A DNA stretch of 64,000 nt from Escherichia coli. GTDB lineage: Bacteria; Pseudomonadota; Gammaproteobacteria; Enterobacterales; Enterobacteriaceae. The notes below the pieces were generated by a model, which did not search any database, had not been told where the DNA came from, and saw nothing but the letters and a program-made list of their open reading frames with translations. How positions within the stretch are numbered: position 1 is the stretch's first letter; each line of letters starts with the position of its first letter. Below, in pieces: positions 10,691 through 55,931 of this stretch. Made by a program: the position numbers and the translations under genes. Where the stretch lies: the NCBI RefSeq assembly GCF_003334255.1, contig NZ_QOWU01000021.1. One strand, written 5' to 3'.

Positions 10691-10887
10691 CTAATTTCAC
10701 CTCCGTTTTCGCATTATATTTTCTAATGCCATTATTTTTTGATTTAGTGTTTTTTGACATTTTTTTAGCTCTTAATATTGTCTTATTCAAATTGACTTTC
10801 TCATCACATCATCTTTGTATAGAAACTGGTGTATTTTTTGGTTTTTTATTCTGTCGCGATTTTTGCATTTTTTAACCATAAGCTAAT
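10691..10887 (+). promoter_or_regulatory. gcvTHP control region: AT-rich leader with three CTAAT motifs (GcvA-type sites) upstream of gcvT
   Basis: ctaat at 10691-10695, 10723-10727 and 10883-10887; spacing resembles the known upstream (two adjacent) and promoter-proximal GcvA sites; exact promoter not resolved. Confidence 0.35.
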
Positions 10888-11050: not shown

Positions 11051-12145
11051 ATGGCACAACAGACTCCTTTGTACGAACAACACACGCTTTGCGGCGCTCG
11101 CATGGTGGATTTCCACGGCTGGATGATGCCGCTGCATTACGGTTCGCAAATCGACGAACATCATGCGGTACGTACCGATGCCGGAATGTTTGATGTGTCA
11201 CATATGACCATCGTCGATCTTCGCGGCAGCCGCACCCGGGAGTTTCTGCGTTATCTGCTGGCGAACGATGTGGCGAAGCTCACCAAAAGCGGCAAAGCCC
11301 TTTACTCGGGGATGTTGAATGCCTCTGGCGGTGTGATAGATGACCTCATCGTCTACTACTTTACTGAAGATTTCTTCCGCCTCGTTGTTAACTCCGCCAC
11401 CCGCGAAAAAGACCTCTCCTGGATTACCCAACACGCTGAACCTTTCGGCATCGAAATTACCGTTCGTGATGACCTTTCCATGATTGCCGTGCAAGGGCCG
11501 AATGCGCAGGCAAAAGCTGCCACACTGTTTAATGACGCCCAGCGTCAGGCGGTGGAAGGGATGAAACCGTTCTTTGGCGTGCAGGCGGGCGATCTGTTTA
11601 TTGCCACCACTGGTTATACCGGTGAAGCGGGCTATGAAATTGCGCTGCCCAATGAAAAAGCGGCCGATTTCTGGCGTGCGCTGGTGGAAGCGGGTGTTAA
11701 GCCATGTGGCTTGGGCGCGCGTGACACGCTGCGTCTGGAAGCGGGCATGAATCTTTATGGTCAGGAGATGGACGAAACCATCTCTCCTTTAGCCGCCAAC
11801 ATGGGCTGGACCATCGCCTGGGAACCGGCAGATCGTGACTTTATCGGTCGTGAAGCCCTGGAAGTGCAGCGTGAGCATGGTACAGAAAAACTGGTTGGTC
11901 TGGTGATGACCGAAAAAGGCGTGCTGCGTAATGAACTGCCGGTACGCTTTACCGATGCGCAGGGCAACCAGCATGAAGGCATTATCACCAGCGGTACTTT
12001 CTCCCCGACGCTGGGTTACAGCATTGCGCTGGCGCGCGTGCCGGAAGGTATTGGCGAAACGGCGATTGTGCAAATTCGCAACCGTGAAATGCCGGTTAAA
12101 GTGACAAAACCTGTTTTTGTGCGTAACGGCAAAGCCGTCGCGTGA
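11051..12145 (+). CDS. gcvT: glycine cleavage system aminomethyltransferase (T protein)
   Basis: 364-aa [55 protein letters not shown]... Confidence 0.97.
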
Positions 12146-30351: not shown

Positions 30352-30786
30352 CAGTGTTTCTCCTTTCGCCCGCCAGAGTAAAAAGCAACCGTTTACGTTA
30401 ATGAAACTGTCTAAACACATGCTCGTGGAGTGCCAGTTTTTGCGAGGAAGGGGAGTTAGAGACAGGAATTGCGGAGGCAATCACATAATCGTGGTTAAAC
30501 CACGAAAATGAGAAGAGAACCTGACAATGGAATTATCTGTAATTTTCTCATATTGATATTTCATTAATCATTCTGGCATGTCGCACTCTCGCATTTAATC
30601 GTTTTTATCTGGATAGCGCTCTTTTGATCGGCAATGTTGAAATAATGAAAGCGGCATAGATTGAGGGGCAATAATTTGAACTCAGTCGCAAAATTATAAT
30701 TAAAACGGTCATGCTACCTAATATATGCCCGTTTATTGCATCGCGAAATTTGAGAAGACATAACTCATTAAATGAAAGGGATGCAA

Positions 30787-46660: not shown

Positions 46661-47431
46661 GTGAAAAGTATAGTTGACCCATCGGCATTAGTCATTGATT
46701 TAGGTGCGCAGAAACGTCCCACTGTGATTTCTGTTGTTGGTGCTGGGGGGAAAACCAGCTTGCTTTTTTGGCTGGCAGAACTGCTCCAGGCTAGCGGCAG
46801 GCGTGTGTTAATCACGACGACGACACATATGTTTATGCCAACGTCTCACTGGCCCGTGGTTTTCTGTCGTGATCCCGCCATGCTTCCTCATGCGTCTCTT
46901 ACATCCCCCATTTCATTTTGTTTTCACAGCTGGAAAGCGAACCAGGGAAAAGTGCAGGGATTTACGCCAGAAGCGATTGATGCACTGGTGCAACGACCAG
47001 AGTGTGACGTAATTCTCATTGAAGCAGATGGCTCGCGTGGAATGCCGTTAAAAGCGCCTGATGAGCACGAACCTTGCATACCCAAAAGCAGTTGCTGCGT
47101 GATTGCTGTGATGGGAGGACATACTTTGGGCGCGAAAGTGAGCACAGAAAATGTCCATCGCTGGTCGCAGTTTGCTGATATTACCGGGTTAACACCTGAT
47201 GCAACCTTGCAACTGAGCGATCTCGTTGCGCTGGTTCGCCACCCTCAGGGGGCGTTTAAAAACGTACCGCAAGGTTGTCGGCGAGTCTGGTTCATTAACC
47301 GTTTTTCTCAATGTGAGAATGCGATTGCACAAAGCGAGCTCCTTCAACCGCTGCAACAACACGACGTAGAGGCAATCTGGCTGGGCGATATACAAGAACA
47401 TCCTGCAATCGCGCGCAGATTTGTGAATTAG
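46661..47431 (+). CDS. yqeC: selenium-dependent molybdenum hydroxylase accessory protein YqeC
   Basis: 256-aa ORF from GTG: (M)KSIVDPSALVIDLGAQKRPTVISVVGAGGKTSLLFWLAE... (P-loop-like GAGGKTS). Confidence 0.85.
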   Translation: MKSIVDPSALVIDLGAQKRPTVISVVGAGGKTSLLFWLAELLQASGRRVLITTTTHMFMPTSHWPVVFCRDPAMLPHASLTSPISFCFHSWKANQGKVQGFTPEAIDALVQRPECDVILIEADGSRGMPLKAPDEHEPCIPKSSCCVIAVMGGHTLGAKVSTENVHRWSQFADITGLTPDATLQLSDLVALVRHPQGAFKNVPQGCRRVWFINRFSQCENAIAQSELLQPLQQHDVEAIWLGDIQEHPAIARRFVN

Positions 47432-53011: not shown

Positions 53012-54208
53012 TTAAGGTGCTACAGCGTGTTTGCCTTCCCAGACAACTTCGCGGTAGTGCTTCACGTCGGTGTCGCCTTCAGTGCTGATAACCAGCACCA
53101 CGGCATCTTTGTTCAGCGCCAGTTTTTCCATCAGGCTTTGACGTTGCGGGTGATAATGAACCGCTGCGAGAACGCCCAAACCGACAGCGCCGGATTCACC
53201 GGAGATGATGCGCGGGTCGTTGCCGTACGGATTACCCAGCACGCGCATACCTAATGCGGCAACGCTGTCCTGGCAGGAGATGAATTGGGTGGCGCAGTTA
53301 CGTAGGATTTCCCAGCCCAGCGGGTTAGGTTCGCCACAGGCCAGGCCTGCCATGATGGTGGCCATATCACCGCCAACGTTGACGATGTCGCCTTTGACGC
53401 TGGAGCGATAAATACAGTCAGCTTTGTCAGGTTCAACAATAATGCTGTGCAGATTTTGCGGGCTATAGACGTCGACCAGATAACCCAGCACACCACCGGC
53501 CATTGCTCCGACACCGGCTTGCAGCAGAACGTGCGTCGGGGTTACGCCCATTTCACGCATTTGCTCGACGGCTTCATCTGCCAGGGTTGCGTAGCCTTGC
53601 ATGATCCAGGTTGGGATTTTGGTGTAACCTTCCCATGCCGTGTCCTGTACCACTTCCCAGCCGTGCTGCTGCGCGTGTTGCATGGTCAGGCGAACGGTAT
53701 CGTCATAGTTCATATCCGTGACGATGCACTCGGCACCGAGGTTCAGAATGGCGTCAACGCGTTCCTGAGCAGAACCTTTCGGCATGTAAATCACCGCATT
53801 CTGTCCGAGTTGCTGTGCTGCCCACGCCACACCGCGCCCGTGGTTGCCGTCGGTGGTGGTCGCGAAAGTCATTTTTTCGCCGATGGCATTTTTCAGGTGC
53901 TCAAATGACAGCGTTTCGATATCAAGATGATATTTTTCACACAATAATTGAGCGATGGCGTACGCACCGCCAAGCATTTTGAAGGCGTTCAGACCGAATC
54001 GTTTTGATTCGTCTTTGACGAGAATTTTCTTCACACCAAAAAGGTTTGCGAGATCGTCCAGCGCACAAAGCGGTGTTGGGCGATAACCAGCTATTTTCTG
54101 GTGGAACTGGCGCGCCAGTTTGGCCTGGCTTTGCGAAAAGAGCGGTGATGTTTCGCCGTTGAAAAATTTGTTATCGGCGATATCAATCTTCAATGAGAAA
54201 ACGGACAT
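53012..54208 (-). CDS. dpaL: 2,3-diaminopropionate ammonia-lyase (PLP-dependent), YgeX
   Basis: 398-aa ORF MSVFSLKIDIADNKFFNGETSPLFSQSQAKLARQFHQKIAGYRPTPLCAL... Confidence 0.9.
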   Translation of the reverse strand: MSVFSLKIDIADNKFFNGETSPLFSQSQAKLARQFHQKIAGYRPTPLCALDDLANLFGVKKILVKDESKRFGLNAFKMLGGAYAIAQLLCEKYHLDIETLSFEHLKNAIGEKMTFATTTDGNHGRGVAWAAQQLGQNAVIYMPKGSAQERVDAILNLGAECIVTDMNYDDTVRLTMQHAQQHGWEVVQDTAWEGYTKIPTWIMQGYATLADEAVEQMREMGVTPTHVLLQAGVGAMAGGVLGYLVDVYSPQNLHSIIVEPDKADCIYRSSVKGDIVNVGGDMATIMAGLACGEPNPLGWEILRNCATQFISCQDSVAALGMRVLGNPYGNDPRIISGESGAVGLGVLAAVHYHPQRQSLMEKLALNKDAVVLVISTEGDTDVKHYREVVWEGKHAVAP

Positions 54209-54265: not shown

Positions 54266-55456
54266 TTATTTCACGCGTTCTTGCGCTTCTTTCAGCAGTT
54301 GCTCGAGCAGTGCACCTGGTTTGGCGTATTTACGGGACAGGATCATCGCGGCGATGATATAAGGCTTCCAGCTGGCTTCTTTGTAGGTAGCGATACGGTA
54401 TTTTTCGAATACGCCTTCAGTCACTTCACCTTCTTTACAGGATACGCCGCTGATATCAGCTGGCAGGCAGTGCATGTACAGGGCTTCGCCATCACGGGTC
54501 AGTTCCATCATCTCTTCAGTACAATGCCAGTCTTTGTGTTGCGCGTTCTGTGCCAGACACTGTTTTTCCAGTGCTTTTAAGCCTTCGTGATCGTTCGCAC
54601 GCAGCAATTCAGTACGCTCTTCCATCACTTTGTAAGGTGCCCATGACTTCGGATAAACGATGTCTGCGTCTTTGAAGGCTTCTTCCATGCTGGTGACCTG
54701 ACGGAAGCTACCACCGGAGGCTTTAGCATTGTTTTTCGCCACTTCAACCACATCCGGGATCAGGTCGTAGCCTTCCGGATGGGCCAGGGTGACATCCATA
54801 CCGAAGCGAGTCATCAGACCGATGATGCCTTGTGGTACAGAGAGCGGTTTGCCATAGCTTGGAGAGTAGGCCCAGGTCATGGCGATTTTTTTACCTTTCA
54901 GGTTTTCCAGTGAACCAAAGTGTTCACGTAACCACGCGAGGTCAGCCATTGACTGAGTCGGGTGGTCAATATCGCATTGCAGGTTCACTAAAGCCGGACG
55001 CTGTGGCAGTACACCCTGCTTGTAACCGTCATCAAGTGCAGCGCCAACTTCACGCATATAGGCGTTGCCTGCGCCCAGATACATATCGTCGCGAATACCA
55101 ATAGCGTCGGCGCAGAAGGAGATCATATTGGCGGTTTCACGCACGGTTTCGCCGTGAGCGATTTGTGATTTGCCTTCGTCGAGATCTTGTTGTGCAAGGC
55201 CGAGCAGGTTAAGCGCGGAAGCATAAGAGAAGCGGGTACGGGTGGAGTTGTCGCGGAATACGGAAATACCTAATCCACTATTAAAGACTTTGGTTGAGAT
55301 GTTTTCAGCACGCAGTGCTTTTAATGCTGCGGCAACGTCCAGTACTTGTTTCAGTTCATCTGGCGTCTGTTCCCACGTTAACAAAAAATCTTTCTCGTGA
55401 AGGTGAGAGGTCAGCGAATTGATATCCTTAATCAGCTCATTAACAGTTTTCATCAT
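54266..55456 (-). CDS. ygeW: carbamoyltransferase-like protein YgeW (ATCase/OTCase fold)
   Basis: 396-aa ORF MMKTVNELIKDINSLTSHLHEKDFLLTWEQTPDELKQV...; STRTR carbamoyl-phosphate-binding motif. Confidence 0.9.
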   Translation of the reverse strand: MMKTVNELIKDINSLTSHLHEKDFLLTWEQTPDELKQVLDVAAALKALRAENISTKVFNSGLGISVFRDNSTRTRFSYASALNLLGLAQQDLDEGKSQIAHGETVRETANMISFCADAIGIRDDMYLGAGNAYMREVGAALDDGYKQGVLPQRPALVNLQCDIDHPTQSMADLAWLREHFGSLENLKGKKIAMTWAYSPSYGKPLSVPQGIIGLMTRFGMDVTLAHPEGYDLIPDVVEVAKNNAKASGGSFRQVTSMEEAFKDADIVYPKSWAPYKVMEERTELLRANDHEGLKALEKQCLAQNAQHKDWHCTEEMMELTRDGEALYMHCLPADISGVSCKEGEVTEGVFEKYRIATYKEASWKPYIIAAMILSRKYAKPGALLEQLLKEAQERVK

Positions 55457-55546
55457 AAAGTCCCGGTAGTGGAATGACAGGCAAAGTGGTTTATTTCACT
55501 GTGACTTGCCAAAGTGATTGGTGTTTTCACAGCTATACCTGGGACT

Positions 55547-55563
55547 AACAATAAGTGTGCCAG
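55547..55563 (-). promoter_or_regulatory. candidate sigma-54 promoter upstream of ygeW: TGGCACA-N4-TTGTT
   Basis: minus-strand TGGCAC (plus gtgcca 55557-55562), 5-nt spacer, TTGT (plus 55548-55551); -12 has GT instead of GC; about 90 bp upstream of ygeW ATG. Confidence 0.25.
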
Positions 55564-55931
55564 AATTATCCGCGCGGCTGCAAAAGACTAATTTGACGGA
55601 TAATGTGTGGGGTTGATCACAAATTGATGCCAGCTTCTGGTTGTTTGTAAAATACGAAAACGTTTGGCTTTTTTTATCGCGTTATTTATTTGCTGCTAAG
55701 TATCAGAAATAAGATAAAGGGGCAGGCTATCTCTCTTCAGTTTGATAAACTCACCGCCGTAATTCTCATATTGATATAGAAATGTGATATCTCTTCCATA
55801 ATTTCATTAGAAAATGATAAAAATCTTATGTTTTTATCAAAGCCAATTTCGCCTGAGTTAATATCATCATGATCTGTGAACCATCAACGTCTTCAATGAT
55901 CGACTTTTAAGTAAGTCTGGAAGGTAAAGCT

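Follow-up and report, generated by a model that had tools for sequence, protein, structure and literature searches.

The sigma-54 promoter of the ygeWXY operon in Escherichia coli and a conserved candidate YgeV enhancer in the ygeV/ygeW spacer

The window analysed here, a stretch of 64,000 nt from Escherichia coli, was 99.956% identical to K-12 MG1655 (NC_000913.3, about 2,997,802–3,032,000), in the reverse orientation. It carried ygeW, the first gene of ygeW-ygeX-ygeY(-hyuA-yqeA), and, divergently oriented, the sigma-54 activator gene ygeV (isrR). Between the ygeW ATG (55456, minus strand) and the ygeV ATG (55932, plus strand) lay a spacer of 475 bp with a GC content of 37%, compared with 51% for the window. 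The region was present in about 5,170 of 5,426 complete E. coli genomes. The features of the spacer, together with those of the related promoters in the window, are listed in Table 1.

Table 1. Promoter elements, candidate regulatory sites and genes in the window. Distances in the ygeV/ygeW spacer are relative to the predicted ygeW transcription start.
Feature	Coordinates	Strand	Remarks
ygeW	54266..55456	-	Leads the operon ygeW-ygeX-ygeY(-hyuA-yqeA), to which the promoter belongs
Predicted ygeW transcription start	55536	-	19 nt 3′ of the motif centre; 80-nt leader to the ATG; inferred
Sigma-54 promoter core CTGGCACACTTATTGTT	55547..55563	-	Identical to ChIP-seq site OS30; conserved
CRP-like site TGTGATCAACCCCACA	55606..55621	-	9/10 specified bases of TGTGA-N6-TCACA; centre −77.5
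PurR-box-like AGCCAAACGTTTTCGT	55654..55669	-	Centre −125.5, between UAS and CRP site
UAS2, weaker second copy TTATCAAACTGAAGA	55734..55748	-	Centre −205, 29 bp from UAS1
UAS1, candidate YgeV site ATATCAATATGAGAA	55763..55777	-	TATCA-N3-TGAkA; centre −234; most conserved block of the spacer
Third palindrome-like block TATCATCATGATC	55862..55874	+	−332 from the ygeW start; one-mismatch match
ygeV (isrR), divergent sigma-54 activator gene	55932..57542	+	536 aa here; the intact frame ends at 57717 (592 aa)
ygfT sigma-54 promoter	30724..30740	+	Palindrome 30545-30559 (−199)
ygfK sigma-54 promoter	45731..45747	-	Perfect palindrome TTATCATAATGATAA, 45915-45929 (−202)
ygfK CRP site, perfect TGTGAGTTCATTCACA	45810-45825		−97.5
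xdhA sigma-54 promoter	61475..61491	-	Palindromes 61609-61623 (−152) and 61588-61602 (−131)

The promoter core read tc-TGGCAC-actta-TTGT-tag on the minus strand, with TGGCAC at 55562..55557 and TTGT at 55551..55548. The 17-mer CTGGCACACTTATTGTT had the canonical TGGCAC-N5-TTGN spacing, and the GG at −24 was contained in TGGCAC (55557–55562, minus strand). The GC expected at −12 (TTGCW) was absent: the element read TTGT, with the G kept and the C replaced by T, at the correct distance from the GG. An earlier note on this DNA had described a perfect −24 TGGCAC, the right spacing and TTGT for TTGC on the minus strand, in a 475-bp AT-rich divergent spacer between ygeW and ygeV, and the sequence agreed with it on each of these points. 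When the start was counted independently from the −12 position, position 55536 was obtained as well.

Eight occurrences of the pattern TGGCACN5TTGC with at most one mismatch were counted in the window, where 7.2 were expected; 45 of 100 shuffled sequences had eight or more. This simple consensus count was uninformative as a test of significance and was dropped. A PSSM was trained on 35 other published intergenic E. coli sigma-54 ChIP-seq sites, with the four in-window sites excluded. It gave the ygeW site a score of 15.85, the top of 127,968 window positions, and its sister sites at ygfK, xdhA and ygfT scored 11.97, 11.57 and 7.85, respectively. Markov-random 64-kb sequences held on average 0.6 matches as good as the ygeW site, and 2 to 5 such matches when pspA, the sole training site with a T at −12, was removed. 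The ygeW motif is not significant by sequence statistics alone. Its significance derives from its position and orientation before ygeW beside an activator gene, from published sigma-54 binding and from deep conservation.

The runner-up in the PSSM scan, CTGTCGCGATTTTTGCA (15.42; 10851–10867, plus strand), was located about 190 bp before a 364-aa ORF at 11051, which may be gcvT, judging from its gene neighbourhood. The region is intergenic and is annotated as "protein YqfI" in other genomes. This match lacked the invariant −24 GG and was not seen among the ChIP-seq table entries examined, and it is probably not a real sigma-54 site.

The same 17-mer was listed as OS30, oriented towards b2870 (ygeW), in Table 1 of Bonocora et al. 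(2015, PLoS Genet; PMC4591121). According to that table, the ChIP-seq peak was centred at 3004190 (U00096.2), had a FAT score of 3 and belonged to the high-stringency set; the start was predicted 19 bp 3′ of the motif centre, leaving 80 bp to the gene. This start corresponds to window position 55536, and the entry carried no EcoCyc flag. No difference was found between OS30 and the element in the window in 17-mer, orientation or predicted start. In addition, a gSELEX peak of the sigma-54 holoenzyme, at 53–55% of the maximum, was reported in the ygeV/ygeW spacer (Shimada et al., 2021; PMC8743547). The sigma-54-type element facing ygeW that the earlier note had proposed is thus documented in the literature by both ChIP-seq and gSELEX. 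The element is the already published sigma-54 promoter of ygeWXY and is not new; the conserved enhancer, the CRP site and the −12 pattern described below extend published knowledge modestly. A limited literature search found no mapped ygeW start, no rpoN- or ygeV-dependence of ygeW and no YgeV footprint.

The earlier note had also called the element weaker. This holds for its occupancy in vivo, since the FAT score was 3 at ygeW compared with 11 at xdhA and 26 at ygfK (Table 1 of PMC4591121), but not for its sequence score, which was the best in the window. The confirmed pspA promoter TTGGCACGCAAATTGTA likewise has TTGT at −12, with a FAT score of 21 in the same table, so TTGT at −12 is not disqualifying. 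Taken with the binding data and the conservation, the element very probably serves ygeWXY, an operon for the catabolism of purines and uric acid, as its sigma-54 (RpoN) promoter.

Conservation of the core was followed within and beyond the species. In three of the most divergent E. coli copies sampled, the 17-mer was unchanged and had SNPs on either side. Outside E. coli, 80 ygeW loci were retrieved, 43 gammaproteobacterial and 37 others; a YgeV homologue lay within 4 kb of ygeW in 37 loci and was full-length and divergent in 34. In essentially all gammaproteobacterial loci, the best site upstream of ygeW was a sigma-54 motif 74–118 nt before the ATG, and in one Photobacterium the motif was found 237 nt before it. 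Three Aeromonas loci kept the motif despite having no ygeV in the flank. Among the 37 other loci, which had no ygeV neighbour and came mostly from Riflebacteria, Bacteroidota and similar groups, just two scored above 9 (10.3 and 12.0). The earlier note had named lack of conservation as a reason to give up the element, and the opposite was observed: about 40 gammaproteobacterial species, as distant as Aeromonas, Photobacterium and Shewanella, had kept the motif before ygeW. Moreover, TGGCA and TATTG were invariant in an 18-genus alignment of the spacer whose mean identity was 42%. The idea that the motif is a functionless chance match agrees with the consensus and PSSM counts in the window, which lay within chance expectation; set against this invariance, the retention in distant genera, and sigma-54 binding published both in vivo and in vitro, it is scarcely credible.

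The conserved cores read yTGGCAyrnTTATTGTT in Enterobacterales, TTGGCACGCTTATTGAT in Aeromonas, ...TATTGGA in Photobacterium and ...GTTGAT in Erwinia. The −12 element was TTGT, TTGA or TTGG across species, and TTGC/ATGC occurred only in two Shewanella (canonical TTGCT or ATGCT). We speculated that the missing C could be a selected setting and not decay, although we consider this rather unlikely. Under such a setting, the weakened contact would lower closed-complex occupancy (FAT 3), so that firing would need both YgeV and a CRP bend at −77.5, with CRP as an architectural co-activator replacing IHF. A weakened −12 contact would be in keeping with the weak ChIP signal at what is, by sequence score, the window's best site. 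If this were true, the −12 position would be a core-promoter base that sets a sigma-54 AND-gate for gut urate/purine catabolism.

The earlier note had expected an activator site further upstream and suggested a search for conserved inverted repeats within 100–200 bp. Conserved repeats were present, slightly beyond that range, with centres at −234 and −205. In the 18-genus alignment they formed a second conserved island about 200 bp upstream of the core, ATCACATTT..TATCAATATGAtAAT...TTTATCAA, in which the UAS2 half-site TTTATCA was invariant. The 15-mer of UAS1 recurred identically upstream of ygfT. The idealised palindrome TTATCANNNTGATAA with up to two mismatches was found nine times in the window against 2.15 expected, and none of 100 shuffled sequences reached nine. 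Five of the nine matches lay 150–235 bp upstream of the cluster's four published sigma-54 promoters: at −234 and −205 of ygeW, −202 of ygfK (a perfect copy), −199 of ygfT and −152 of xdhA. A sixth site, at −131 of xdhA, had the core CTCATATTGATA in common with them. When 13-mers of the four upstream regions were compared without bias, the best was TATCAATATGAGA, matching at 36 of 39 positions; the maximum over 60 shuffles was 32. Each of the cluster's four sigma-54 promoters had a TTATCA-N3-TGATAA palindrome 130–235 bp upstream.

The palindrome was also widespread among other species. Of the 43 gammaproteobacterial loci, 39 carried TATCA-N3-TGATA with at most one mismatch upstream of ygeW, compared with a single one of the 37 other loci; after shuffling, 1.09 of 43 did. 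In Enterobacteriaceae it mostly stood at −234 or −235, and a second palindrome, 27–30 bp (mostly 29 bp) downstream of the first, recurred in somewhat more than a third of the species. The locus combined a candidate cognate enhancer-binding protein, encoded by the divergent ygeV, with conserved palindromes at −234 and −205. From this co-occurrence and the analogy with clostridial DioR, we considered it probable that the palindromes constitute the YgeV enhancer.

Further copies were seen elsewhere. Two lay inside genes and away from sigma-54 sites (9778–9790 and 53920–53932); the second, within the ygeX coding region, was a perfect TATCAAGATGATA with no obvious sigma-54 site near it, and may have arisen by chance or act as a YgeV site within the gene. 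Another, TTCTCAATGTGAGAA, was situated inside yqeC (47305–47319), about 223 bp downstream of the intragenic sigma-54 promoter TGAGCACGAACCTTGCA (47062–47078, plus strand), which has been validated experimentally and drives yqeB. This copy may be due to chance, or may act from downstream as the enhancer of what would be the regulon's fifth promoter. The third palindrome-like block of the spacer belonged to a block ATGATGATATTAAC (55857–55874) about 65 bp before the ygeV ATG, reading TAATAT on the plus strand. Only the half-site TGATA was conserved there, with G70, A71, T72 and A73 of the 18-genus alignment invariant or nearly so. It may represent an extra or autoregulatory YgeV half-site, or the −10 region of a ygeV promoter.

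A different regulator, such as a Fur-like protein or a global binder of AT-rich DNA, might instead occupy the palindromes, with the YgeV site elsewhere. The AT-rich motif has some likeness to the GATAAT repeats of the Fur box, and the two good intragenic copies away from sigma-54 sites also point in this direction. Such a regulator would not explain why the palindrome accompanied the ygeW promoter in nearly all gammaproteobacterial loci and in a single one of the others, why 34 of the 43 gammaproteobacterial loci adjoined a full-length YgeV homologue, or why a copy stood at enhancer distance from each of the cluster's four sigma-54 promoters. In addition, Table S3 of Nie, Dong and Yang (2019, BMC Genomics; PMC6615313) gave the same palindrome, derived independently, as the predicted UAS of clostridial DioR for the same genes. 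Binding by a regulator other than YgeV was accordingly regarded as improbable, and YgeV is taken below as the candidate ligand of these sites.

A third conserved island of the 18-genus alignment was the CRP-like TGTGATCAACCCCACA. Most loci from Enterobacterales and Aeromonas had a similar site between −76.5 and −78.5, so this candidate CRP site was conserved in both sequence and position. The CRP site of ygfK lay 20 bp further upstream than that of ygeW (−97.5 vs. −77.5), or about two helical turns. IHF often occupies such positions at sigma-54 promoters, and the IHF consensus WATCAANNNNTTR was absent from the spacer. CRP is also known to repress some sigma-54 promoters. A recent engineering study noted a "native Crp-binding site" in the ygeV/ygeW spacer and reported that urate degradation was glucose-repressed, the repression being lost once constitutive promoters replaced the spacer (PMC12507026). 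Because the site is conserved, the pathway responds to glucose in that study and the spacer lacks an IHF consensus, CRP would likely serve here as the bending factor and as the catabolite input.

One more block, between the UAS and the CRP site, was conserved in Escherichia, Citrobacter, Atlantibacter and Trabulsiella only. This block, AGCCAAACGTTTTCGT, resembles the PurR operator. ygeW has been placed in a computationally extended PurR regulon (PMC4576408).

A scan of the spacer for sigma-70 promoters gave none that was convincing for ygeW; one candidate overlapped the ATG, and the counts were at chance level. This bears on the proposal that sigma-54 is bound but silent or modulatory, as at the numerous sites of this kind in Bonocora et al. 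(PMC4591121), and that ygeW is transcribed by a CRP-activated sigma-70 polymerase. The low ChIP occupancy (FAT 3), the nearby conserved CRP site, the glucose repression of the pathway (PMC12507026) and a GATAAT hexamer abutting the −24 element in E. coli are all compatible with it, and many sigma-54 sites have no known transcript. However, apart from the candidate overlapping the ATG, no sigma-70 promoter directed to ygeW emerged from the scan, and the GATAAT hexamer was not kept in other genera, where the −24 and −12 bases were invariant. The distance between motif and ATG and the UAS-CRP-promoter spacing were also kept across genera, and ygeWXY shared its expression pattern with the cluster's other sigma-54 operons in the iModulon described below. 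Transcription of ygeW by sigma-70 polymerase therefore appeared improbable, and the sigma-54 promoter was retained as the preferred reading.

The "YgeV iModulon" of Lamoureux et al. (2023; PMC10602906) contains ygeWXY, xdhABC, ygfK, ssnA, xdhD and ygfT, and the authors give Reitzer and Schneider (2001) as the source of the xdhABC and ygeWXY sigma-54 promoters. From their common palindrome-plus-sigma-54 design, we infer that ygeW, xdhA, ygfK and ygfT form one YgeV regulon. The leader of ygeW was considered as well. A block GCCnGTCATTCaC-TACCAGGA (55457–55480, minus strand), just before the ygeW ATG, was conserved in Enterobacteriaceae beyond the Shine-Dalgarno sequence. An Rfam scan of 55300–56000 (E ≤ 1) returned no family, and consensus folding of the 80–100-nt leader from 16 species yielded no common structure, so no riboswitch or attenuator is claimed.

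The YgeV protein had the Pfam architecture PAS (162–205), Sigma54_activat (AAA+, 272–439), AAA lid (445–528) and HTH_8 (548–587), and its translation contained the GAFTGA motif. A GAF match was not significant (E = 0.03), and no receiver domain was found in the Pfam search. No NCBIfam model reached its cut-off for YgeV; the best was the clostridial PrdR model, below cut-off. The gene was renamed isrR by Kumar et al. (2022), where the binding site was not defined.

In the window, ygeV carried a 7-bp tandem duplication relative to MG1655 (CAGAGGT twice, 57523–57536). It shifts the frame after residue 533 and leads to a stop at 536 aa, with loss of the whole HTH_8. Among the RefSeq complete E. 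coli genomes, 5,272 contained this stretch and not one of them had the duplication; all 5,272 aligned at 90–95% identity or lower, equivalent to a 7-nt gap. The RefSeq name "sigma-54 interaction domain-containing protein" had raised the idea that truncated ygeV is common in E. coli, and this was ruled out by the same count. A second frameshift was observed in the amidase-activator gene actS/ygeR (plus strand), where a run of nine C at about 62037–62045, compared with eight in MG1655, split the ORF into 61810–62064 and 62240–62590. This homopolymer change suggests a sequencing error or a mutated laboratory strain, and since it looks like a sequencing error, it bears on how far the ygeV duplication can be trusted. 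If the duplication is real, YgeV probably cannot bind the enhancer in this strain, and the four promoters would be poorly inducible, although truncated activators can still act weakly from solution.

The following sequence of events was proposed for the intact system. Sigma-54 polymerase, whose binding is known from the literature, would contact the −24 TGGCAC and the −12 TTGT and form a closed complex unable to open by itself. Ligand-activated YgeV would then most likely bind the palindromes at −234 and −205, oligomerise, loop to the promoter and open the complex with ATP. CRP-cAMP at −77.5 could help the DNA to loop or bend and add catabolite control. Transcription would start near the predicted position 55536 and proceed through ygeW-ygeX-ygeY and beyond.

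In gut bacteria, the operon behind this promoter stands at the entrance to anaerobic uric-acid/purine degradation. The influence of this pathway on urate in the host is under study, and the pathway is being built into probiotics, for which precisely this spacer is exchanged (PMC12507026). Its native control logic appears to combine sigma-54, YgeV at TTATCA-N3-TGATAA, and CRP. Such a logic would indicate the bases to preserve or delete, the signals that control the pathway and the strains likely to be silent, for example the strain of the window with its truncated YgeV. The element itself adds nothing to sigma-54 biology.

The layout at ygeW can be compared with well-known sigma-54 systems. In the NtrC/glnAp2 type, a pair of activator sites stands more than 100 bp upstream, and a DNA-bending protein acts between them and the −24/−12 core; prpBCDE, with sigma-54, PrpR and CRP, offers an example of CRP acting positively on a sigma-54 operon. 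The ygeW region resembles both in its arrangement and differs from them in that its UAS are unusually far upstream (−205 and −234) and that it has no IHF consensus. The likeness to pspA lies in the consensus −24 TGGCAC and the non-canonical −12 TTGT, whereas pspA has another activator (PspF, with no sensor domain), another physiology and a FAT score of 21 compared with 3. With respect to OS30, Bonocora et al. (2015; PMC4591121) did not describe activator sites, a CRP site or cross-genus conservation, and by their entry EcoCyc did not then contain this site.

The closest parallel was the DioR system of Clostridia. The tables of Nie, Dong and Yang describe DioR as having a GAF-PAS sensor, a GAFTGA motif and an HTH_8, and give as its predicted regulon dpaL(ygeX)-pyrC-argE, ygeW-ygfK-ssnA-ygeY, xdhABC and yqeC-ygfJ-yqeB, with predicted UAS such as ATTTATCATAATGATAAGG and TATTATCATTTTGATAATA (PMC6615313). 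The gene set ygeW, ygfK, ssnA, ygeY, dpaL/ygeX, xdhABC and yqeB/C is common to both systems. By domains, the architectures of DioR and YgeV are alike (GAF-PAS, GAFTGA AAA+, HTH_8), with the reservation that the GAF of YgeV was not significant. YgeV thus shares with DioR-type regulators both its domain architecture and a UAS palindrome upstream of the sigma-54 promoters of its cluster. In the listed clostridial cases, as in E. coli, the UAS TTATCA-N3-TGATAA stands about 150–250 bp upstream of the sigma-54 element, both sets being computational. The clostridial −12 is the canonical TTGCT, in contrast to the TTGT, TTGA or TTGG of gammaproteobacterial ygeW. CRP is not known from Clostridia. No CRP site is given for the clostridial promoters in the tables of that study (PMC6615313). 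The E. coli ygfK enhancer ATTATCATAATGATAAGG (45915–45929) matched 17 of 18 bases of the predicted C. botulinum ygeW enhancer TTTATCATAATGATAAGG (upstream of CBO2885). This sequence likeness hints that the activator, its sites and its genes moved or persisted together between Firmicutes and Gammaproteobacteria.
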